Part shown: one piece after another, positions 4,551 through 62,545 of the stretch
How the letters are laid out: each line of letters starts with the position of its first letter
Numbering within the stretch: position 1 is the first letter of the stretch
DNA from: Candidatus Multivoradales bacterium
GTDB taxonomy: Bacteria > Acidobacteriota > Thermoanaerobaculia > Multivoradales > JAHEKO01
Length of the DNA: 64,000 nt
Assembly: GCA_965248055.1 (NCBI GenBank)
Contig: CBDFIJ010000004.1
Location: 988,299 to 1,052,298, forward strand
Reading direction: 5' to 3'
Made by a program: the position numbers and the translations under genes
The notes under the pieces: model-generated
What the model was told of the DNA's origin: nothing
Database searches by the model: none
The model's input: only the letters and a program-made list of their open reading frames with translations

Positions 4551-5620
4551 GAGACTGGATCCTGGTCGATCCGCTCTTCTTTCACTGCTGCCTCTTCGTC
4601 TCCGGATTCTGCGACAGCGCCTTCTGCAGCAGCGGCTTCGTCCACGGCGCTCTCGATATTCGGCGGTCCGTTCTCCAGCCCATCGCGAGTGGTCAAGCGG
4701 ACAAAGATGTCCTCCAACGAAGCCTGTTCTCGGGTCATCTCCAAGATCGTCCACCCCTTGGCAACCGCCAAACTAAAAACCTCCGCTCGCAAGTCTTGAT
4801 CTCCGGCAACCGCCAGCCGAAGCCGGAGATCTCCTGACTCCTGGCTCCGATCGCCGGTCACTACCGCCGCATCGACTCCATCAAGTTGTTGCAGAGAGTC
4901 AAGCGCGGACTCCGGTCTACCGAGTAACTCGAGCCGTAGGCCACTGGGGCCACTCCACTCGCGGCGCAGATTCTCGGGAGTGCCTTCGGCCACGATCTTT
5001 CCGCGATCGATAATCAGCACTCGCGAGCACAGCAACTCGACCTCGGGCAAAATATGCGTCGAAAGCAGAATCGTATGCTTGCGACCCAGCTCGCGAATCC
5101 GTTCGCGAATGGCAACGATCTGTTTCGGATCCAAACCCACCGTTGGTTCGTCCAACACCAGCACGTCGGGGCGATGCAAAATCGCCGCGGCCAAACCAAT
5201 TCGCTGCCGGTAGCCCTTGGAAAGAGTGCCGACAATCTGTCGCCGGACATCGGTGATCAAACACGCGTCCATCGCCTCAGCGACTGTGCTACCGATCTCG
5301 CCCCGTGCCATTCCAACCAACTGCGCTCGATAGTTCAGATACTCCTCGACCCTCATCTCCGGGTAGACGGAAACATTCTCCGGTAGGTAGCCGATTTGCT
5401 GGCGCGCTTTGGCCGGCTCGTCGAACAGGTCGACGCCACTGACCGAGACCTGCCCGCCGCTCGGAGGTAGAAAGCCAGTGACCATCCGAATGGTGGTGGT
5501 TTTGCCCGCCCCGTTGGGTCCTAAGATACCGACGATCTCCCCTTCGTTGACGGTGAAAGACACGCCATCAACGGCAGTGAAGTCGCCGTAGCTACGCGAA
5601 AGATTGGTTGCTTCAATCAT
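4547..5620 (-). CDS. ABC transporter ATP-binding protein (GldA-like) with acidic C-terminal tail
   Basis: Walker A GPNGAGKTT. Signature LSKGYRQR. Walker B VLVLDEPT. Confidence 0.85.
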   Translation of the reverse strand: MIEATNLSRSYGDFTAVDGVSFTVNEGEIVGILGPNGAGKTTTIRMVTGFLPPSGGQVSVSGVDLFDEPAKARQQIGYLPENVSVYPEMRVEEYLNYRAQLVGMARGEIGSTVAEAMDACLITDVRRQIVGTLSKGYRQRIGLAAAILHRPDVLVLDEPTVGLDPKQIVAIRERIRELGRKHTILLSTHILPEVELLCSRVLIIDRGKIVAEGTPENLRREWSGPSGLRLELLGRPESALDSLQQLDGVDAAVVTGDRSQESGDLRLRLAVAGDQDLRAEVFSLAVAKGWTILEMTREQASLEDIFVRLTTRDGLENGPPNIESAVDEAAAAEGAVAESGDEEAAVKEERIDQDPVS

Positions 5621-5808: not shown

Positions 5809-7434
5809 TTAAGCTAACTTCAACCAGTGCTTTGCCCGCCGTACTGCGTCGGTACTGCCGCAGATATAGACATCGTCGTTTGCAGCAAAGACAAAGGATG
5901 GCGCCAGATCGGCATGGACTTGGCCAGCGCGTTCGACCGCGACAACTGTGGTCCCAGTGTTTTCCCGCACTCCAGCTTGCTCCAAACTACGGCCAGCAAG
6001 CCGTACCGCCGAGAGACATAGAACCTTGAAACGCGGGTCGAGTGCGATCGCTTCTTCCTCGACCAGATGAGCCGCCAAAATACGTCCGGCGACTTGGTCC
6101 AAGGACACCGCATAGCTGGCTCCGGCGCGATGAATATTGTCCAAATTCCCAGCATCATTGACCCGCACCACCAGCGGCACGGAAGGCGCCAGGTCATGCA
6201 CCACCAAGGTGGCAAACAGGGTGGCAGCGTCAGAGTCCAGAGCCAGAAGCACGGAACCTGCGTTGCGTACATCCGCCTGCACCAAGGTCTCGGGGTCGCG
6301 AAAATCAGCGACCAGATCGACCCCCGGATCTGCCCGGCGATCAATCACATAGACCTCTTCTCCCGCCTCGCGCAGAAGCTCGGTCGCCCTGCGTCCGACC
6401 TCGCCATAACCGCCGACCACGTGCCGTGAGCCGCGCTCTGCAGCGCTACCGATCGCCTCAACCCGCATGCGCTCGATCGCCTCTCTGCTGCCGGCCACCA
6501 CCAGAGTCCCCTCGGGCTCAATAACCGTGGCGCCGGACAAGTCGGTGACTAGGTCCCCACCAACCCACTGTGCAACCACCGAGACTCCCCAGTTCTTGCC
6601 CAGCTTGGCGTCGTCCAATCTGCGCCCCGCGAGCGGACTACTCTCGACCATGCGCACCGACTCAAGCCGCAGCTTGCGGCCGTAGGAAAAGACGCCGGCG
6701 GTCGAAGCCACCTTGGGGCAAACTCGGTGCGCCAACGCCGCACCCAATTCGTACTTGGGGGTGACCACTTCGGACGCCCCAGCCAACTGAATGGCTCGGC
6801 GATGGGTCAATTCTGTCGCCACGGCGACGATGGTCCCAGTGAAGCCGCTCTGCCGCGCCGCCACCGATACCGCGGCATTTTCGTCGTCGCTACCGTTAGC
6901 GATCAACGCCGCCGCGGTTTCCAGGCTGGCTCCGGCCAATGACTCGTCGGTGATACCACCCAAAATCACCGGAACTCCGCTCAAGGCGGTGGCCCGCGCT
7001 GAGGAGATGTAGGGCTCCAACACCACCACCGATCGCTTGTCGCGCATTAAATCCTGGACCAGCCCGGCAACCGCGGCGCCATAGCGATAAATCACGATGT
7101 GGTCTTGGAGCCCTCCCATCTTGCGCGGAATCCGCGCTTCGAAGCGCTCCTCCATCAGCGGAATGAGATAGATCGGGAAGATCAAGAAGACCAGGAATAC
7201 CCCGAGAAACTGAGTCAGGGTGACAAACACCACCATCGCCGGGTGATGCCACGAATGGTCCGCGCCATAGCCGGTGGTGGTGACGGTTTCTGCCGCCCAA
7301 GAGAGCGCCGCCCAAAACGACCGGGGCGATCCTTCCAACCAACGCATTCCAGCCGCGTAGAGTAACGCCAAGACCACCAGCGCTGCTGCCAATGCGGCGA
7401 CCAACCATAAGAGTCTTTTCCATGCGCGCGACAC
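5809..7434 (-). CDS. potassium channel with tandem RCK/TrkA-type cytoplasmic domains
   Basis: Selectivity filter TVTTTGYGAD. N-terminal TM helices. Two Rossmann-like RCK regions (VIDRRADPG..., VVVLEPYIS...). Confidence 0.8.
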   Translation of the reverse strand: MSRAWKRLLWLVAALAAALVVLALLYAAGMRWLEGSPRSFWAALSWAAETVTTTGYGADHSWHHPAMVVFVTLTQFLGVFLVFLIFPIYLIPLMEERFEARIPRKMGGLQDHIVIYRYGAAVAGLVQDLMRDKRSVVVLEPYISSARATALSGVPVILGGITDESLAGASLETAAALIANGSDDENAAVSVAARQSGFTGTIVAVATELTHRRAIQLAGASEVVTPKYELGAALAHRVCPKVASTAGVFSYGRKLRLESVRMVESSPLAGRRLDDAKLGKNWGVSVVAQWVGGDLVTDLSGATVIEPEGTLVVAGSREAIERMRVEAIGSAAERGSRHVVGGYGEVGRRATELLREAGEEVYVIDRRADPGVDLVADFRDPETLVQADVRNAGSVLLALDSDAATLFATLVVHDLAPSVPLVVRVNDAGNLDNIHRAGASYAVSLDQVAGRILAAHLVEEEAIALDPRFKVLCLSAVRLAGRSLEQAGVRENTGTTVVAVERAGQVHADLAPSFVFAANDDVYICGSTDAVRRAKHWLKLA

Positions 7435-7616
7435 CCAGGAATTCTACTCGCCATTAGCTCCCCTGACCGTACTTAGCAGACCGCAAGTTATTGCGCTCGC
7501 CGAACGATAGACTCTGGTCATGGCTTTGGAGAGTGAAGACCTCAAAGATCGATCGCCCCATGATCTCGCCACAGATCACCACATTGGCCAAGGGGTCCGA
7601 TGAAAGAAAGTGCCCG

Positions 7617-28261: not shown

Positions 28262-28851
28262 TTATTCGCTGTCAATCTCGGAAAGGTAGAGATCCCCTCG
28301 CGAAGTGGAGAGCGAGTAGACAATCCCTTCCTGGGTCAGCGCCATGGTCGCCGCGTCTTCTAGCTCGCTTTTTGCTTCGGTCTCCGCCAGTTTGGCCAAG
28401 CCACAGGTCCAACACTTTCGCCTGCCCTCTCTGGTTCACCATCACGTTGGCGGGTTTGAAGTCACAGTGGATGATTCCCTTAGCGTGAGCTTCGGCCAGG
28501 GCGTCGGCGATGGGAATGGCAAGATCAAACAGCTTGCTGAGCCCAAGACCATCTGCAGGAACGTGCTGGTCAAGAGTCTCACCTTCCACCAGCTCCATAG
28601 TCAGGAAGTGAATCCCGTCGGTTTCTTCGACCGAGTGGATGGTGACGATATTGGGGTGGTTGAGCGCTGCCACCGTCTTGGCCTCGCGTTTGAAGCCCTC
28701 CAAACGATTGGGATCGCTGGCCAGCCGCTGGGGTAAAACCTTTAAGGCTACTGAAAACGGCTGAGCCCTCCGTGCCCGATACACCTCTCCCATTCCCCCC
28801 TCGCCGAGCTTGGAAAGGGATACGGTAGTGAGACAGCCTCTCTCCGATCAC
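28262..28851 (-). pseudogene. Ser/Thr protein kinase remnant (frameshifted, truncated)
   Basis: GTG + MIGERLSHYRI, then +1 shift into the frame encoding LSKLGEGGMGEVYRA (Gly-loop), ALKVL (VAIK), and a degenerate catalytic loop HCDFKPANVMV. A second shift follows near LD(FG)LAKL, with termination ~190 aa before the activation segment/APE. Confidence 0.55.
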
Positions 28852-28960
28852 CAGTTTGTGTCCTTTCGAGATAGAGATCTTTCGCTCGGCTCAGGACTCA
28901 GCGCCGAGCGCCTCGGCTTGGCGGTGATCTGGTAGTGAGAGAGGGTGGTACCAATCACGC
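28795..28960. repeat. direct repeat copy 1 (~165 bp, ~85% identical to 29700-29878) covering the kinase 5' end and upstream hairpin
   Basis: Base-by-base comparison of the two stretches. Both contain GAGATCYTTCGCTCGGCTCAGGACTCAGCGCCGAGCG. Confidence 0.75.
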
Positions 28961-29401
28961 CAGCGGGTCCTCGACCGCTAGTCCCGGGATGGATTGGAAG
29001 TTGCGATCATGAGTCCAGATCACCGAGGCTCCGTTGTCAAACGCCGCCAAGGCGATCTGAAGGTCGAAGACCCGCACACCGCGGATGTCCCGGTCTGTAG
29101 CAACCTGCAGTAGCCGAGGGCCGAATTCCGGGCCAGGCCGCCAAAGACGGCCGCCGCCGTCTACCAATCCCTGCAAGAAAGCCTGTGCCTCGAGTGGCTC
29201 AGAGGGGCGACCGGTAGCGGTCGGATGGGTCACGATGCTCCAGAACTCGGCGATCGCAGGCGAGGCAACACCCCAACCACGACCACTGTCGGCAGCTCGT
29301 TGAATCGCTTCGCGCGCCGCGGCGTGCTCAGAAACCCCAGTGCGATGGGCGTAAACCAAAAGGTTGGTATCGATGGCGATCACGATACCGTTCGCAACCA
29401 T
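28955..29401 (-). CDS. vapC: PIN-domain ribonuclease toxin
   Basis: IAIDTNLLVYA (acidic PIN residues), 148 aa. Overlaps the upstream antitoxin gene by 22 bp. Confidence 0.8.
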   Translation of the reverse strand: MVANGIVIAIDTNLLVYAHRTGVSEHAAAREAIQRAADSGRGWGVASPAIAEFWSIVTHPTATGRPSEPLEAQAFLQGLVDGGGRLWRPGPEFGPRLLQVATDRDIRGVRVFDLQIALAAFDNGASVIWTHDRNFQSIPGLAVEDPLA

Positions 29402-29625
29402 TCACGCATCGCGGCGCGATCGGCGACGTCTATCCCCGCAGGTAGGCCTCCATTCACCGTCACGAACTCGAGTCGCTGAGTTCGATGCTCCGCGATCGGT
29501 CGATCGCTCTCCAGCTCGCGCCGCAGGCCACGGGTAAACAACTTGCGCAGAGTCGTCCTCTCTTCTGCGGCCTTTTTCTTGGCCGCGACCAGCAACTCTT
29601 CAGGTAGGTCAATGGTGGTTTTCAT
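29380..29625 (-). CDS. vapB: type II antitoxin (VapB-like, MKTTIDLPEELL family)
   Basis: 81 aa. MKTTIDLPEELLVAAKKKAAEE is characteristic of VapB/ribbon-helix-helix antitoxins. Confidence 0.65.
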   Translation of the reverse strand: MKTTIDLPEELLVAAKKKAAEERTTLRKLFTRGLRRELESDRPIAEHRTQRLEFVTVNGGLPAGIDVADRAAMREWLRTVS

Positions 29626-29674
29626 GAACCCATATTGCCATATTTATGGTTATACGGCACATCTCATCTTGGCC

Positions 29675-29764
29675 TCACTGCACTTTCGCGCGATAAACCT
29701 CTTTCATCCCACCTATGCCCAGCTTGGAAAGGATGCGGTAGTGAGACAGTCTCTCTCCGGTCAT
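29675..29764 (-). pseudogene. 30-codon kinase N-terminal remnant (MTGERLSHYRILSKLGIGGMKEVYRAKVQ*) inside direct repeat copy 2
   Basis: Hand translation. Intact Gly-loop in frame, preceded by AAAGGA, but terminates after 30 codons. Confidence 0.4.
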
Positions 29765-29878
29765 CAGTTCGCGTCCTTTTGAGATTGAGATCCTTCGCTC
29801 GGCTCAGGACTCAGCGCCGAGCGCCTTAGCTTGGCGCTTATCTGGTAGTGGGAAAGCGTGGTGCCGATCAGTTCCCCC
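29700..29878. repeat. direct repeat copy 2 flanking vapBC
   Basis: See copy 1. Same orientation. The vapBC pair lies exactly between the copies. Confidence 0.75.
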
Positions 29879-31543: not shown

Positions 31544-31748
31544 TCTGGCATGCCCCCCTCAGCGGTCAAGGATATCTCTTGTCGGTCGTCATCGGAACCA
31601 GACCTCAGGAATGCAACCGCGATGGGGTCACAGGCAGGTGGATTGAGATAGATACCGGCCCTCCTCCCTAACCCCCGCCGGGATGACATAGAAGAGGCTT
31701 CTCCGCCGGGATGCCCCGAGGGGAGTCCCGACGATGGTCATACCGGTC

Positions 31749-31890
31749 TGAGGCACTTCAACGTGTCGTTCCACACTGAGACACTTCATCGTGTTGTCCC
31801 ATCCTGAGACACTTAATCGTGTCGTCCCACACTGAGGCACTTCAGCGCGTCATCCCACGCCGTGGAACATCAACGCGTCGTCTCCTTCAG
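31749..31890. repeat. 28-bp imperfect tandem repeat x5 (TGAGRCACTTNANCGTGTYGTCCCAYNC)
   Basis: Aligned by eye. Flanked by partial F1-type elements (..CCTAACCCCCGCCGGGATGAC..) at 31663-31691 and 31995-32025. Confidence 0.7.
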
Positions 31891-32077
31891 TACTTCCTCG
31901 TCATCCTCGTAGGGTGGGGGTTTTGGGGATCGAGGATCTCCAACAGCGTCAGCGACCCACAGCCAGTATCTGGACGGCCACCGAATCCCGTCCCCCCTCC
32001 CTAACCCCCGCCGGGATGACGATGGGTGGAATCTCCTCTGCCTCTTGTTCAGAGGCGGTCCTGCTGTTGTCTGGTGA

Positions 32078-41894: not shown

Positions 41895-42635
41895 GTGGTT
41901 GTGATTTCTCTTTTGGCGGTGACCTCCGGGTTGATCGGCCATCCACGACTCAAGCCCGATGAAGTCGACCTAACCCATAGCGCCACGCTCTTGGCCCGAT
42001 CTATCGCTTACCACGACCCCGGCGGGCGCTGGGGCCAAACCCCGCTGGCACTCGGGTTTGAAGAGACCCGCCCCGATGGCTCGGCGCGCCACACCAGCGT
42101 GGTCCTTGACCCAGTCCATCAGCGCTTTGAGTGGAGTTCACAGCGCGGTGAAGATCTGTTGCAAGGGTCGCTGAACGAGGGCGAATGCACGGTCACTCTC
42201 AACGGCTCGGCTACGTTTTCTGCAGCCCAGCGTGACACCTACAGCCTCGACTGCGATCGCGTCACCCTCTATCGCGACTACTACAGCTACCTGTGGGGAC
42301 TGCCGATGAAACTGCGCGACCCCGGTACTCGCCTGGATCCTGAGGTTCGAGACACCGAGTTCAACCGGCAACAGGTTAAGAGCATCCGCGTCACCTACGA
42401 CCAGGAAGTCGGTAGTGACACCTGGTATTTCTACTTTGACCCGGAATCCGCCCGGTTAGTCGGATACCGCTTCTTCCACGATCAAGCGGCCAACGATGGT
42501 GAGTACATCTTTCTGCAGGGTGAACTCAAAGCCGAAGGACTACGCCTGCCGATGTCGAGAACTTGGTATACCAATGCCGAAGATCAGTTGCTGGGAACCG
42601 ATACTTTGGTTGAGTTGGTTGCGGAAGCTGAGTGA
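41895..42635 (+). CDS. hypothetical protein
   Basis: 246-aa ORF with a GTG start and a hydrophobic N-terminus. No recognisable motif. Confidence 0.4.
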   Translation: MVVISLLAVTSGLIGHPRLKPDEVDLTHSATLLARSIAYHDPGGRWGQTPLALGFEETRPDGSARHTSVVLDPVHQRFEWSSQRGEDLLQGSLNEGECTVTLNGSATFSAAQRDTYSLDCDRVTLYRDYYSYLWGLPMKLRDPGTRLDPEVRDTEFNRQQVKSIRVTYDQEVGSDTWYFYFDPESARLVGYRFFHDQAANDGEYIFLQGELKAEGLRLPMSRTWYTNAEDQLLGTDTLVELVAEAE

Positions 42636-42673
42636 ATAGATTGTTCCTCCGCGTCGAGACCTGACAGCGCGCG

Positions 42674-42697
42674 GGAGCCCGCAAGGGGCTCCTACAT
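42674..42697 (+). terminator. GC-rich stem-loop (GGGAGCCCGCAAGGGGCTCC) 40 bp past the stop of the preceding gene
   Basis: 7-bp stem and 6-nt loop seen in the sequence. No U-tract. Confidence 0.3.
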
Positions 42698-42734
42698 TGA
42701 CCTCGCACATCCTGAATTGCCGGAACGCAAGGAG

Positions 42735-43880
42735 CTGGAGATTCAGCCAACATCGAGATCCTTCGACTCGGGCTACGCCCTCGCTCAGGATGACAACGGA
42801 AGAGGTAGCTCCCCACGCCGCTATCCAGCATGCAACGAAATGCCTTCATCGGAGCGAGCTGTCCACGATCCCAATGAACTAACCCGGCCTGCTCTTCGTC
42901 GGGGAGGGGCAAGTTCAAACGGCCCTACACGCCGGGGTTATCCTGAGTGGCCGAAGCGTGCAGCTCTACCCCGTAGTCACCCTGAACGGACTATCCAAGG
43001 CCCCAAATGAACTAACCCGGCTGTTCTTCGTCGGAGAGGGGATTGCCCCCTCCCGCACCCTTTCACTGTGGTGGTCCAGAGCGACCGAAGCGTACAGCTC
43101 TACCCCGTAGTCACCCTGAACGGGCTATCCAAAGTCCCAAAATGAACTAACCCGGCGCTGTTCTTCGTCGGAGAGGGGATTGCCCCACCCGCACCATTCC
43201 ACCGCAGTGGTCCAGAGCGACCGAAGCGTATTGCTCTACCCCGTCGTCATTCTGAGCGAACCAGTCATCCGCTCAGCACCCATTCCACCCGTGGTCATCC
43301 TGAGCGACCCCGAGTCCGCGAGGGAGAGTCGAAGGATCTCAACTTCACAGCGCACACTCTTTCTGCAGAGGGCAGCATTGTCGCGACCCGAACTGAGGAA
43401 GGCAAAAAACGGGAACCCCCAAGGGGATCCCCTACATCGTCTTCCAACGTCAGGTGAATCGCCGAAACGGAGAACCATTCGCCAGCATCGAGATTCTTCG
43501 ACTCGGGCTACGCCCCTCGCTCAGGATGACAACGGAAGAGGTAGCTCGCCACCCCGGTACCCAGCATGCAACGAGTTGCCTTCATCGAAGCGAGCTGTCC
43601 ACGATCCAAATGAACTAACCCGGGCTGTTTCTTCATAAGAGAGGGCTTGTCCCCTCTCACACCCCTCCACCGCGGTCGTCCCGATCGACCGAAGCGTACA
43701 GCTCTACTCCGTTGTCATCCTGAGCGACCCCGAGTCCGCGAGGGTGAAGTCGAAGGATCTCAACTGCACCGCGTACACTTCTTCTGGAGAAGGCAGCATT
43801 GTCGCGCCACTAACTCAAGAGGACAGAACGGGAACCTACGAGGGCGCCCCTACATTTCTTTTTCTTGGTGGCTTCGTAGG
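42735..43880. repeat. complex repeat region: two ~370-bp duplicated modules carrying F2 elements (GAGATCCTTCGACTC..CGCTCAGGATGAC in both orientations), plus three tandem ~128-bp subunits each carrying a GAGGGG-N5-CCCCTC hairpin
   Basis: 42750-42890 matches 43487-43625, and 43290-43440 matches 43712-43855, at ~90% identity. Subunits at 42875/43003/43131. Reading frames through it (DDNGRGSSPRRYPACNE..) are repeat-derived. Confidence 0.7.
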
Positions 43881-43892
43881 TGCGAGAACCGA

Positions 43893-44267
43893 CTAACGCC
43901 GCACCAAAGGACCCGCGTCAATCTCCACCAACGCATGACGCCGATCGACGCCTGCCCTACGATCGCCCATCTCCTGACGGACAAACTCGGACATCCGTTC
44001 GACCTCGGCTTCTAGCTGGTCGATTCGCGCTTGGAGTTTGAGGATGACGTCGACGCCGGCTAGGTTGACGCCCATGTCACGGGTGAGGGTAAGGACGGTT
44101 TCTAAGCGCTTGAGAGTGTCGTCGTCGTAGAGGCGGGTGTTGCCGTCGCTGCGCGGTGGGTCGATCAAGCCTTCGCGCTCGTAGAGCCGCAAGGTTTGAG
44201 GGTGGATGTCGAAGCGTTCAGCGACGACGCTGATCATCACCGTTGTTTGTCGCTTTCTTTTCACCAT
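43893..44267 (-). CDS. hspR: MerR-family heat-shock repressor
   Basis: MISVVAERFDIHPQTLRLYEREGL aligns with the HspR HTH. Located 240 bp downstream of dnaK. Confidence 0.7.
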   Translation of the reverse strand: MVKRKRQTTVMISVVAERFDIHPQTLRLYEREGLIDPPRSDGNTRLYDDDTLKRLETVLTLTRDMGVNLAGVDVILKLQARIDQLEAEVERMSEFVRQEMGDRRAGVDRRHALVEIDAGPLVRR

Positions 44268-52469: not shown

Positions 52470-53095
52470 GCCGGTCGATACAGATTCCCGCCCCTCGCTC
52501 CCCACCCGCTGGAATGACGGGCTGCTACTACCTTTTACCCCACCCGCGTCAGAATGGGAGGGGGCAACCCCCTCGATCCAACTCAGCGCCGAAGAACTGG
52601 CCTTGATCGAAGCCGCGACCTTCTCCATCGCCTAGCTATCAACGTATTCAAAACGACACACCCCCAACTCGTCATCCCGGCGGGGAAAGGATTGGGGGGC
52701 CGGGATCTACACATCTCAGCTGCGGAATCTGCACGCCCACCTTGGCAAAGATTCCCGCCCCACGCTCCCCTCCCGCGGGAATGACCGCCTGCTTTGCAGG
52801 GGCGGGTTTTACCCGCCCGCGTCAGAACGGGCGGGGACAAACCTCCCCCCTACTTCTCCATCGCCTAGCTATCTCCGCGCGCCCTTATGACCTACCCAAA
52901 CTCGTCATCCCGGCGGGGGAAGGATTGGGGGGCCGGGATCTACGCATCCCAGCTGCGGAATCTGCACGCCCACCTTGGCAAAGATTCCCCCCCACGCTCC
53001 CCGCCCGCGGGAATGACGGGCTGCTTTGTAGGGTCGGGCTTTACGCCCGCCCGCGTCGGAAGGGAGGGGATAAACCCCTCCCCTACACCTAGCTG
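52470..53095. repeat. tandem array D: ~240-bp module x~2.6, each carrying a divergent F1 palindromic element, a GGGAGGGG-N4-CCCCTCCC hairpin and a copy of the last ~60 bp of the AKR gene
   Basis: 52650-52890 vs 52890-53095 ~90% identical. Tail ..SAEELALIEAATFSIA* at 52577-52635 duplicates the AKR C-terminus (51585-51644). Confidence 0.7.
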
Positions 53096-55078: not shown

Positions 55079-55336
55079 GAATGACGAGCACGGGCCATCA
55101 TCAACGCCCCTTGGACGTCGGAGAATACGCGGACAGATCCCGGCTCCCCTCCCCCACCCCCGCCGGGATGACGGAGGCGGCGCTCCCCGAAATGACTCGG
55201 GTTGAGGCGCCCGCCGGAACGACATGAGCATGAGACGGGCTTGCCCTCGGTCGAGGGCGTCATTCCCGCGGGCGGGAGTGCCCGGACCGGAAAGCCGAGG
55301 GCGGGAATCTGGTGGACGATGAATATCCAATAGCTA

Positions 55337-56264: not shown

Positions 56265-57060
56265 CTCGTCATCCCCGAAGGGCGGGGGTTTGGCGGTCAG
56301 GGTCTTACAAGCGAAAAGACTACCGACGGATTACGTGACTGGCTGAGATCCCGGCCCCCCGCCCTCACACCCGCCGGGATGACGAGGGCTACCCGCGGCC
56401 GGATGACGAAGGAAGTGCCTGCCGGGATGACAAGGGAAATGTACGCCGAGATGACGGAAGCGGTACCCGCCGGACGACTCATCTGTGTCATCCCCGAAGG
56501 GAGGTGGCTCCGGGGGGCGGGAATCTTTCAAGCGCAGGGTCACCGACGGATTACCTGGTTGGCTGAGATCCCGGCCCCCCGCCCTCACACCCGCCGGGAT
56601 GACGAGGGCTACCCGCGGCCGGATGACGAAGGAAGTGCCTGCCGGGATGACAAGGGAAATGTACGCCGGGATGACGGAAGCGGTACCCGCCGGACGACTC
56701 ATCTGTGTCATCCCCGAAGGGAGGTGGCTCCGGGGGGCGGGAATCTTTCAAGCGAAGGGTCACCGATGGATTACCTGGTTGGCTGAGATCCCGGCCCCCC
56801 GCCCTCACACCCGCCGGGATGACGAGGGGTACCCGCGGCCGGATGACGAAGGAAGTGCCTGCCGGGATGACAAGGGAAATGTACGCCGAGATGACGGAAG
56901 CGGTACCCGCCGGACGACTCATCTGTGTCATCCCCGAAGGGAGGTGGCTCCGGGGGTCGGGGATCTTTCAAGCGAAGGGTCACCGACGGATTACCTGGCT
57001 GAGATCCCGGCCCACCGCCCGCACACCCGCCGGGGTGACGAAGGAAGTGCCTGCTGGAAT
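56265..57060. repeat. tandem array A: ~220-bp unit x~3.7 built on the F1 element (TCGTCATCCCCGAAGGG..GGTCGGGGATC..GATCCCGGCCCCCCGCCCTCACACCCGCCGGGATGACGA) followed by four ~24-bp sub-repeats with a GGATGAC core
   Basis: Unit boundaries 56485/56705/56925 read from the sequence. Units >95% identical. Open frames on both strands are not in register across units (220 is not a multiple of 3). Confidence 0.8.
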
Positions 57061-57535: not shown

Positions 57536-58019
57536 CTTCCCCCCTTCCGCGGTGTCGCGGAGATGTTGTGACCGGAGAGTACCCCGACTTTGATCATGCA
57601 GCCGCCGCTCGTCGGCGACCTAGTGAGGGCAATACGGGTTGCTGCGGTGACAAGATTTATGGAATGAGCATGCTGTGAAAAGGGATTAATCCCGCTCCGT
57701 CGTGGCTGCGGAGAAGCACCTGTGGAAAGAGGCTGTGCTTCTCGCCCAACTCGCGAGGTAGACGGCGCATCGAGATCCTTCGACTCCCCTCTAAGACTCG
57801 GGTCGCTGAGGATGACAATAATTAGCGACACCGAAACACCAACCTCTCAATTTTGCCGCCGACCGCGGGGTGGAATGTGTCCGCTTACCCCAGAGAAAGT
57901 GGTTCATCCTTGATCGCTGTAAAACAATTCCCGGTGATCGTGGGAGGGGATAAACCCCTCTCCACATAAGGATTGGTTCACGGTTGACAACGCCGACGAT
58001 CCTCTTGTCGTGGCGGGGC

Positions 58020-58095: not shown

Positions 58096-58114
58096 GTAAA
58101 CGGGAAGGGATAAC

Positions 58115-59215
58115 TCATCTGTGTCATCCCCGAAGGGCGGGGGTTTGGCGGTCGGGGATCTTATGAGCGAAGGGATCAGCGACCGATTACGTACTGGACT
58201 GAGATCCCGGCCCCCCGCCCTCACACCCGCCGGGATGACGAAAGCGGGCCAGCCGGGATTACGGAGACGGTACCAACGGGAATTACAAAGGTGTGCCCGC
58301 CGGAATGACTCATCTTCGTCATCCCCGAAGGGCGGGGGTTTGGCGGTCGGGGATCTTATGAGCGAAGGGATCAGCGACCGATTACGTACTGGACTGAGAT
58401 CCCGGCCCCCCGCCCTCACACCCGCCGGGATGACGAAGGCGGGCCAGCCGGGATTACGGAGACGGTACCAACGGGGATTACAAAGGTGTGCCCGCCGGAA
58501 TGACTCATCTTCGTCATCCCCGAAGGGCGGGGGTTTGGCGGTCGGGGATCTTATGAGCGAAGGGATCAGCGACCGATTACGTACTGGACTGAGATCCCGG
58601 CCCCCCGCCCTCACACCCGCCGGGATGACGAAGGCGGGCCAGCCGGGATTACGGAGACGGTACCAACGGGGATTACGAAGGTGTGCCCGCCGGAATGACT
58701 CATCTGTGTCATCCCCGTAGGGAGGGGGTTTCGGGGGGTCGGGGATCTTTCAAGCGAAAGGACTACCGACGGATTACGTGACTGACTGAGATCCCGGCCC
58801 CCCGCCCTCACACCCGCCGGGATGACGAAAGCGGGCCAGCCGGGATTACGGAGACGGTACCAACGGGAATTACAAAGGTGTGCCCGCCGGAATGACTCAT
58901 CTTCGTCATCCCCGTAGGGAGGGGGTTTCGGGGGGTCGGGGATCTTTCAAGCGAAAGGACTACCGACGGATTACGTGACTGACTGAGATCCCGGCCCCCC
59001 GCCCTCACACCCGCCGGGATGACGAAGGCGGGCCAGCCGGGATTACGGAGACCGTACCAACGGGGATTACGAAGGTGTGCCCGCCGGGATGACGAAAGCG
59101 GGCCAGCCGGGATTACGGAGACGGTACCAACGGGAATTACAAAGGTGTGCCCGCCGGGATGACGAAGGGTGCGCCGGGGCAAGCTCTCACACCGCCGGGG
59201 TGACAAGCGCCCACC
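58115..59215. repeat. tandem array B: ~198-bp unit x~5.5 built on the F1 element
   Basis: Units begin at about 58115, 58312, 58510, 58707, 58905 and 59077 (partial). Identity is near 98%. The 3' end runs into the start region of the helicase gene. Confidence 0.8.
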
Positions 59216-61784: not shown

Positions 61785-62545
61785 CATTGAGATCCTTCGA
61801 CTCCCTTCACTGCGCTCCGGTCGCTCAGGATGACAGGGAAAAGCGGGAGGATGCCCCCCTACAGATGGATCGTTGCTTGTCTTTCACGACTGGTTAGGTG
61901 ACCAATTCGTCATCCCCGAAGGGAGGCCTTCTTGAGGGTCGAGAATCTTTCAAGTGAACGACTCAGCGACGGACTTGCGTACTTGAAGAAGATCCCGGCC
62001 CCCCACCCCCACACCCGCCGGGATGACGAGGGAGGGGGTCGGCGAGAGGACTCATCGATGTCATCCCCGAAGAGAGGGGGTTCTGCGGGTCGGGATCTTT
62101 TTGGCGAACGGATCTCCGACGGATCACGCACTTGGCGGAGATCCCGGCCCCCCGCCCCCCCGGCTCCACATCCCCGTCGCGCCGGGGCAGGCTCTCAGTC
62201 CGCCGGGATGACGAGGGAGGTGCTTTGGGATGGCGAAGGGAGGGCCGGCGAAATGACTCTTCGGTGTCATCCCCGAAGAGAGGGGGTTCTGCGGGTCGGG
62301 ATCTTTTTGGCGAACGGATCTCCGACGGATCACGCACTTGGCGGAGATCCCGGCCCCCCGCCCCCCCGGCTCCACATCCCCGTCGCGCCGGGGCAGGCTC
62401 TCAGTCCGCCGGGATGACGAGGGAGGTGCTTTGGGATGGCGAAGGGAGGGCCGGCGAAATGACTCTTCGGTGTCATCCCCGAAGGGAGGGGGTTTCGGGG
62501 GTCGGGGATCTTTCAAGCGAAGGACTCAGCGACTTACCGCCTCCC
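61785..62545. repeat. F2 element followed by tandem array C (~206-bp units x~3) built on the F1 element
   Basis: F2 at 61785-61845 (CATTGAGATCCTTCGACTC..CGCTCAGGATGAC). F1 units from 61905. Units 62060-62265 and 62265-62470 are nearly identical. Confidence 0.75.

Follow-up and report, generated by a model that had tools for sequence, protein, structure and literature searches.

The repeat-rich stretch next to hspR in the genome of a Candidatus Multivoradales bacterium (Acidobacteriota; assembly GCA_965248055.1, contig CBDFIJ010000004.1) raises the question of what kind of element the dispersed repeat F2 is, and whether it marks DNA prone to recombination, as an earlier note on this sequence had suggested. 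The analysis covered 64,000 nucleotides (positions 988,299 to 1,052,298 of the contig), called here the window; the letters plus and minus, as well as all coordinates, refer to it. Four copies of F2 are gathered in a region of 1.1 kb, and other parts of the window carry a second family of hairpins, F1. F2 is a real hairpin-forming intergenic repeat. With a probability of about 0.7, it is a repetitive extragenic palindrome (REP) of the CGTC/TGTC-tagged superfamily that lies outside the four families described so far. In the 1.1-kb region itself, intact F2 copies and decayed ones are piled up as a mosaic, similar in type to bacterial interspersed mosaic elements (BIMEs) and neisserial intergenic mosaic elements (NIMEs). 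This region is repeat debris; it is not a gene, nor is it a locus for a regulatory RNA.

Structure and occurrence of the F2 repeat

The F2 unit, GTCATCCTGAGCGA...AGTCGAAGGATCTC, occupies six sites of the window in both orientations. A covariance model, R1, which was trained solely on copies from other genomes, gave exactly six strong matches in the window (38-56 bits, E 1e-9 to 6e-15), and these are the same six positions at which the earlier note had placed a repeat dispersed in both orientations. Moreover, the 13-mer GTCATCCTGAGCG occurs 11 times with up to two mismatches, compared with 2.3 expected occurrences, a count that was equalled in 0 of 100 shuffles. The six copies are the following:

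42751-42798, minus: F2 copy a, core GTC..CTC 42755-42794; R1 56.2 bits, E 5.7e-15; apical hairpin GGGC-GTA-GCCC; tag TGTC
43290-43344, plus: F2 copy b, core 43294-43340; R1 41.2 bits; tag GGTC
43486-43534, minus: F2 copy c, core 43490-43530; R1 53.2 bits; one arm substitution (GAATCTC)
43710-43765, plus: F2 copy d, core 43714-43761; R1 45.6 bits
57768-57820, minus: F2 copy e, core 57772-57816; R1 38.4 bits; MazG-to-DinG-like intergenic region, between two F1 tandem arrays
61785-61838, minus: F2 copy f, core 61789-61834; R1 44 bits

The tag reads TGTC in five of these copies and GGTC in one. Copies b and c, with b on the left and a spacer of 141 nt, make up the sole tag-outside (head-to-head, HH) pair of F2 in the window, while copy f is located 78 nt past the stop of a DinG-like helicase open reading frame (ORF) and 180 nt ahead of an F1 array. 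The gene contexts of the F2 sites are convergent, unidirectional and convergent.

Each unit is an imperfect palindrome of 40-50 nt, composed of two 14-base arms and a centre of 7-30 nt, with the order (Y)GTC, ATCCT, GAG, CGA, A, variable hairpin, GNAG, TCG, A, AGGAT, CTC. The unpaired (Y)GTC tag precedes a 5-bp foot (ATCCT/AGGAT) that begins with an A-T pair, and a 3-nt CTC tail follows it. The interior comprises a GAG/A internal loop, a 3-bp CGA/TCG helix, an A/GNAG loop and then the variable apical hairpin, whose stems of 2-8 bp are unrelated in sequence. The apical hairpin is usually closed by a C-GNA-G triloop, and a GNA loop is present in 36 of 98 distinct centres.

Covariation was assessed in a model-based alignment of 149 distinct F2 copies from other genomes. 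Standard pairs fill 98.9% of the cells, two-sided changes are found in 110 cells, and all three helices covary. The observed covariation measures were matched in 0 of 500 shuffles and collapsed in slid controls. The pairs A8-U99 and U9-A98 are formed in 146 and 148 of the 149 copies, respectively. The pair 18-89, which closes the middle helix, is A-U in 113 copies, G·U in 30 and G-C in 2; in the 47 copies that lie outside the selection imposed by the scan pattern, G is found in 32, so that G·U is the majority state. Because of this G·U state, only the tag-bearing strand folds cleanly. The same 47 copies have T in 85% of cases at the first position of the tag and G, T and C in 100% each at the following ones, whereas the tail has C in 100%, T in 87% and C in 81%. 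Looser matches contain compensated variants of the foot (ATTCT/AGAAT, ATTCC/GGAAT, ATCCC/GGGAT and ATCTC/GAGAT). The hammerhead, K-turn, sarcin-ricin motif, attC and RP4-type nick site were each compared with the alignment and rejected on core motif or topology; ATCCT, which resembles a nick core, covaries as a stem.

A match to a known non-coding RNA or protein domain, which the earlier note had named as the result that would explain the conservation of F2 without mobility, was looked for and did not appear. There was no Rfam match at the gathering threshold in the whole window, and over 42600-43900 a search at E <= 10 gave two weak, unrelated matches only. Several ORFs of 50-152 aa overlap the F2 copies of the window, none of them with a Pfam domain, and a Pfam search of all ORFs inside the 42.7-43.9 kb region also gave no domain; a coding origin of the region was rejected on this ground. 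F2 thus probably gives rise to spurious small ORFs. When the literature was searched with DNA strings and spurious-peptide strings, nothing on F2 itself came up.

The distribution of F2 was determined by scanning species-representative genomes for both arms, letter for letter, separated by a gap of 6-30 nt. The arms recur in at least 118 stretches of genomes belonging to 15 or more phylum-level lineages, namely Acidobacteriota, Bacillota, Bacteroidota (including Rhodothermia), Actinomycetota, several classes of Pseudomonadota, Myxococcota/'delta', Bdellovibrionota, Verrucomicrobiota, Lentisphaerota, Planctomycetota, Chloroflexota, Gemmatimonadota, Armatimonadota, Fibrobacterota, Binatota, Omnitrophota and Patescibacteria. 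The cultured carriers include Rubrivirga, Chthoniobacter flavus, Bifidobacterium pluvialisilvae and Marinicella litoralis, and the GC content of the loci ranges from 38 to 74%. The distribution is patchy; F2 is absent from 47 kb of DNA of the nearest relatives. Phages and plasmids were considered as vectors and rejected, as only 4 of 2.9 million viral contigs matched the exact pattern and 72,556 plasmids gave 2 weak matches. One IMG/VR contig classed as viral (L120, 11.7 kb covered) bears five F2-type matches; it may represent the border of a prophage or a cellular fragment that was misclassified.

In other genomes, 235 R1 matches were found in 0.70 Mb of F2 loci, which means that F2 copies cluster. 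Neighbouring pairs in the 118 listed loci are arranged mainly as '+-' (40 pairs, 38 of them within 188 nt), with 10 '-+' and 19 tandem pairs. The tag-outside pairs are 6-188 nt apart and the tandem ones mostly more than 300 nt, and the apical hairpins differ between the partners of tag-outside dimers. As regards location, 91 of 173 copies are placed between ORFs and a further 25 at the ends of ORFs. The genes bracketed by F2 are ordinary or housekeeping ones (MFS transporter, FabI-type reductase, DHFR, M24 peptidase, AIM24, Fic), and no transposase family, Y1_Tnp included, was enriched in the F2-dense loci or F2-bracketed ORFs among the top 25 families of each scan; a linked transposase was therefore rejected. 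A general link to the GIY-YIG nuclease was also rejected, since it is represented by only 3 small ORFs in about 0.95 Mb of F2-containing loci and one of them is bracketed by F2. That one belongs to Bifidobacterium pluvialisilvae 82T24 (L082, segment 799-1729, ORF 812-1256), where F2 pairs recur about 826 bp apart, and it is a candidate worth profiling. In a metagenome-assembled genome of Acidobacteriaceae (L008), tandem units of 144-166 nt, each with an F2-type hairpin, are found at 750-1090, 4570-5040 and 6870-7600. They are analogues of the arrays in the window, which shows that such arrays have formed in other Acidobacteriota too.

Anatomy of the repeat region and its surroundings

The repeat region is a convergent intergenic stretch of 1,257 bp in a window whose GC content is 58%. 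This agrees with the earlier placement of the region between a hypothetical gene and hspR, the former being an ORF with a DUF6503 domain. Its features are listed below:

41895-42635, plus: DUF6503 ORF (Pfam E 9e-24), left flank
42672-43437 (766 bp), no strand assigned: module A, with the order GC hairpin and CCTACAT, F2(-), linker, three subunits, F2(+), tail, GC hairpin
42672-42698 and 43830-43855, at both region ends: diverged hairpin and CCTACAT motifs, related to the hairpin at 43411-43437
42873-43275, plus: three tandem subunits of 133-136 nt, each beginning with AATGAACTAACCCGG (Tandem Repeats Finder period 136, 2.2 copies, 89% matches)
43410-43855 (446 bp), no strand assigned: module B, with the order of module A and a single subunit
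43411-43437, minus: GC hairpin followed by a T-run, terminator-like (terminator scan)
43609-43741, plus: fourth subunit, in module B, its 3' end being the 5' arm of F2 copy d
43893-44267, minus: MerR/HspR ORF, right flank, with dnaK just beyond

The modules and subunits reported in the earlier note are indeed duplicated, whereas the sizes given there, about 370 bp and about 128 bp, have to be corrected to 766 and 446 bp for the modules and 133-136 nt for the subunits, of which three stand in tandem and one in module B. Module A corresponds to module B with about 300 bp of additional subunits. In the self-BLAST comparison, 42672-42988 is matched by 43410-43726 (78.6%) and 43289-43437 by 43709-43855 (82.7%), and after removal of the insert of about 300 nt both modules are 77% identical. 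The subunits are 70-81% identical in pairwise comparisons, and all of them contain decayed 5' arms of F2 type, which in the tandem ones lie at 42937, 42976, 43110 and 43246. With 20-30% divergence between duplicates, neither modules nor subunits are of recent origin. The modules around them have diverged by 23%, but the four intact F2 copies of the region have a single mismatch (1 of 112 arm positions), which indicates that F2 has been held constant while its surroundings drifted. The subunit has no other occurrence within the window, and metagenome scans with a longer pattern taken from the subunit start, as well as with a window-specific extended F2, gave zero matches. The hairpin at 43411-43437 (site 43411-43432, minus) is the sole terminator-like site of the region; it lies about 460 nt past the hspR stop and is followed by GTTTTTTG on the hspR/dnaK strand.

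The earlier note had also described shortened forms of F2 in both direct repeats that flank vapBC, and such relics are present as GAGATCYTTCGCTCGGCTCAGGAC at 28874-28899 and 29787-29812:

28874-28899, minus: F2-like relic in the left vapBC repeat, just upstream of the start of a kinase-like ORF, recognised by its sequence
29783-29816, minus: F2-like relic in the right vapBC repeat (TCCTGAGC..CGAAGGATCTCAAT), marginal R1 match (13.8 bits, E 0.07)

The left relic has no full-length R1 match, only a partial one (7.3 bits at 28895-28914). The genes for VapC (PIN domain, 28955-29401) and VapB (29380-29625), both on the minus strand, are situated between direct repeats of about 185 bp (28774-28957 and 29688-29870, 78-87% identical; the pair D1, 28815-28957 and 29728-29870, reaches 87%). 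Each repeat holds the N-terminus of a Ser/Thr-kinase-like ORF (LSHYRI..KLG.GGMG) together with its leader. The left repeat runs on into the kinase-like ORF, which is apparently frameshifted near its start (vapBC feature 28272-29870).

These observations bear directly on the suggestion that F2 marks recombination-prone sequence, for which no local support was obtained. The relics lie mid-way in the duplicated segments, in the 5' leader of the kinase-like ORF and away from the junctions. Moreover, the homology of modules A and B extends beyond F2 on both sides, and F2 therefore does not bound the duplicated unit. The only partly syntenic relative (L125, with an orthologue 68% identical) is collinear as far as the DUF6503 gene and departs beyond that point, and four other relatives have no synteny at all, so that the comparison is uninformative. 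The dRS3/NIME arrays of Neisseria have been proposed as recombination substrates and phage integration sites (PMC1797815), and by analogy with them a role of F2 in marking recombination-prone sequence is plausible.

The F1 hairpins of the window are textbook members of the CGTC-tagged REP superfamily. The GTCATCC end that F1 was said to have in common with F2 is indeed shared; it occurs 53 times on both strands, compared with about 12 expected, and F1 hairpins match the F2 model weakly (13-20 bits). The window has another 25 GTC-tagged hairpins of AT-first type, where about 1 is expected, and 30 occurrences of CGTCATCC, which are cited in favour of the same machinery for F1 and F2. The F1 arrays are as follows:

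52662-53086, 56268-57041, 58113-59168 and 62020-62513: F1 tandem arrays with periods of 195-233 nt

The unit of these arrays is a NIME-like, tag-outside heterodimer of two different CGTC-tagged hairpins plus a spacer, for example 58123-58162 (plus) paired with 58201-58239 (minus). The ORFs of 170-340 aa that cross the F1 arrays are probably spurious, and none of them has a Pfam domain. Hairpins at 52748-52785, 52981-53017 and 55259-55311 read GTCATTCCCGCGGG...GGGAATCT, with dRS3-type ATTCCC/GGGAAT ends and a centre of 20-35 nt instead of 8 nt. A tandem repeat of 28/56 nt (31737-31882) adjoins a tag-outside pair of CGTC type, 31900-31940 (plus) and 31982-32020 (minus). The palindrome GCGATCGC is present 12 times in the whole window, where about 3.4 occurrences are expected, and CGATCGCC ranks with the commonest 8-mers; this excess is a HIP1-like over-representation unrelated to F2.

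Origin and maintenance of F2

The F2 unit folds on the strand that begins with the tag, and this strand may be single-stranded DNA, RNA or both. Like other REPs, F2 is probably a non-autonomous selfish or commensal element, with a putative enzyme that acts in trans, recognises the tag and the hairpin foot, and probably copies or maintains the repeat. Copies would build up in intergenic DNA that tolerates them, frequently as tag-outside dimers. The 1.1-kb region was probably formed by an old tandem duplication of a module of about 450 bp and by expansion of the subunit of about 135 nt, while selection or gene conversion would keep the F2 units nearly invariant. Effects on local recombination or on the formation and stability of mRNA 3' ends would be secondary. 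GNA triloops are classic loops of DNA mini-hairpins and are not typical of stable RNA loops; together with the analogy to REPs and their transposases they point to a DNA form of F2, whereas the sense bias of single copies and the T-runs after some dimers point to an RNA form.

Several observations weigh against F2 being a member of this superfamily spread as a REP. Single units fold no better than shuffles (z -1.9 to +1.1), so that the structure is supported by comparative and not by thermodynamic evidence. Where single copies of other genomes stand in co-directional contexts, they are biased to the sense orientation (27 vs 8, p = 0.002), and in the window the outermost copies are antisense to the neighbouring convergent genes. 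REP families are normally lineage-specific, and a repeat that is only selfish would not usually have the same 28-nt arms in many phyla. No mobilising enzyme, insertion polymorphism, empty site or target duplication came to light. The body of F2 differs as well: it has a 5-bp helix, a 3-bp helix and a third helix of variable length (2-8 bp), with conserved internal loops, as opposed to the uninterrupted 8-9-bp stem and 4-5-nt loop of the described CGTC families, and its tail is CTC instead of the usual CCA. Since stem, loop and tail depart in this way, F2 is best placed in the superfamily as a new and structurally more complex family.

The alternative to be taken most seriously, although it is rather unlikely, is that F2 is primarily a functional RNA, a hairpin of 3' untranslated or intergenic regions by which transcripts are stabilised or ended, or to which an RNA-binding factor of universal conservation binds, its dispersal being secondary. 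Such a role would fit the three covarying helices with invariant loop bases, the G·U pairs on one strand only, the sense bias in co-directional contexts and the identity of the arms from 38% to 74% GC. T-runs follow on both strands of some alphaproteobacterial dimers (L071, L114), which is consistent with it too, and many REPs have been argued to act as RNA (Di Nocera et al., PMC3733652). However, no Rfam match was obtained even at E <= 10, the repeat is patchy among relatives, the gene-adjacent copies of the window are antisense to those genes, and copies decay in place. The strand bias could equally mirror the replication strand, and the GNA triloops give a hint, though only a hint, of DNA.

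It is improbable that F2 serves as the site of a site-specific recombinase or integrating element, dRS3- or attC-like, that directly drives local rearrangements, which is the view closest to that of the earlier note. Filamentous phages of Neisseria integrate at the sister family dRS3 (CGTC-1), which has also been proposed to promote NIME recombination (PMC1797815), F2 and F1 stand in dynamic-looking mosaic arrays, and the synteny with L125 ends at the repeat region. Yet no Pfam family was found in ORFs inside or adjoining the repeat arrays of the window, and no integrase, Y1_Tnp or other transposase is among the 25 of 80 families listed for its ORFs. The internal position of the vapBC relics, the passage of module homology through the F2 copies and the age implied by 20-30% divergence of the duplicates also argue against it, as does the lack of the attC core GTTRRRY; the broken synteny loses weight because other relatives have none anyway. 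A still less credible proposal treats the F2(-)...F2(+) pairs as terminal inverted repeats of a miniature transposable element of the inverted-repeat type (MITE) of 270-590 bp, with the modules as two insertions. Both internal segments are flanked by perfectly complementary 20-nt arms, TCGCTCAGGATGACAACGGA and TCCGTTGTCATCCTGAGCGA, as this would require. Nevertheless, no target-site duplication is present at the outer ends, and the modules resemble each other beyond the F2 pairs, for about 80 nt on the left and about 90 nt on the right. In addition, the subunit occurs nowhere else in the window, and the longer pattern from its start has no metagenome match; a MITE with F2 termini was rejected for these reasons. 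Elsewhere, F2 pairs mostly have the opposite, tag-outside arrangement with spacers of 6-150 nt.

F2 in relation to known repeat systems

The REPs of Escherichia coli with their BIMEs, and the REP doublets (REPINs) of Pseudomonas with the REP-associated tyrosine transposase (RAYT), resemble F2 as short, tagged, imperfect palindromes that form inverted intergenic doublets or clusters and fold as single strands. Their tag is GTAG and that of F2 is (Y)GTC. These REPs are mobilised by a single-copy Y1 HUH transposase, the RAYT, which they flank, whereas for F2 no equivalent is known or was found among the families listed, and REPIN partners are near-identical, unlike the partners of F2 dimers with their different apical hairpins. 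The attC sites share with F2 an imperfect palindrome, conserved outer boxes, unpaired bases, a variable terminal structure and the folding of one strand. Unlike attC, F2 ends without the RYYYAAC/GTTRRRY core, and its orientations alternate instead of forming a same-orientation cassette array; no IntI was found nearby, among the 25 of 80 Pfam families listed for the ORFs of the window.

A closer likeness is that to the CGTC-tagged REP superfamily (Di Nocera, De Gregorio and Rocco, 2013, BMC Genomics 14:522; PMC3733652). Its tag may be CGTC, TGTC or CCTC, positions 1-2 of the stem are A-T, and the families CGTC-1 to CGTC-4 have a stem of 8-9 bp, a loop of 4-5 nt and a 3-nt tail with the consensus CCA (PMC3733652). 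CGTC-1 includes dRS3 of Neisseria and RPE-6 of Rickettsia, and RPE-4 also belongs to the superfamily (PMC3733652). HH dimers predominate, tail-to-tail ones are rare and head-to-tail ones negligible; 5 phyla have been reported, and bulged families that escaped detection are expected (PMC3733652). F2 has in common with these repeats the unpaired CGTC/TGTC tag, the A-T start of the stem, an unpaired tail of 3 nt, although one that reads CTC and not CCA, and G·T stem pairs. Both are dominated by HH dimers, often heterodimers, and are found between unidirectional or convergent ORFs, with no flanking transposase and a patchy distribution over several phyla. The arms of F2, in turn, are identical in at least 15 phylum-level lineages, compared with those 5 phyla, and F2 copies are clustered in the window, whereas clustering is called rare for CGTC repeats (PMC3733652).

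The CGTC-tagged REPs are a large superfamily without a known mobilising enzyme, and F2 offers a sharp handle on this question. Its 28 invariant arm bases and defined structure make it scannable in all genomes and allow its presence to be correlated with protein families. We tentatively consider that F2 might represent an uncatalogued pan-bacterial family with three helices, in which the invariant bases of tag, foot and loops would be the surface recognised by a widespread enzyme or factor that acts on single-stranded nucleic acid. If this is true, F2 would supply what is missing from an explanation of how the 'orphan' CGTC-tagged REPs arise and persist. The cross-phylum identity of the arms and the missing enzyme give F2 a moderate interest, while the region in which it was noticed is itself repeat debris.

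For that region, the most instructive comparison is with the mosaic arrays of Neisseria, which reportedly were described as NIMEs by Parkhill in 2000. In these arrays, dRS3 inverted repeats flank RS repeats of 50-150 bp, and they were not seen outside Neisseria (Bentley, 2007; PMC1797815). The window likewise contains intergenic arrays in which CGTC-type hairpins alternate with repeats of about 40-230 bp from several families, and the number of units varies between paralogous modules, here three subunits versus one. The differences are the phylum, the lack in F2 of the 20-bp dRS3 consensus ATTCCCN8GGGAAT, and the fact that no associated phage or IS110-type recombinase was seen at the window. 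Because F2 lacks this consensus, NIME is used here as a working likeness and does not denote membership. Summarizing, mosaic arrays described for Neisseria only appear to have counterparts in a distant phylum, and if the pan-bacterial character of F2 considered above holds true, arrays of NIME type would be a general bacterial phenomenon and not a peculiarity of Neisseria.

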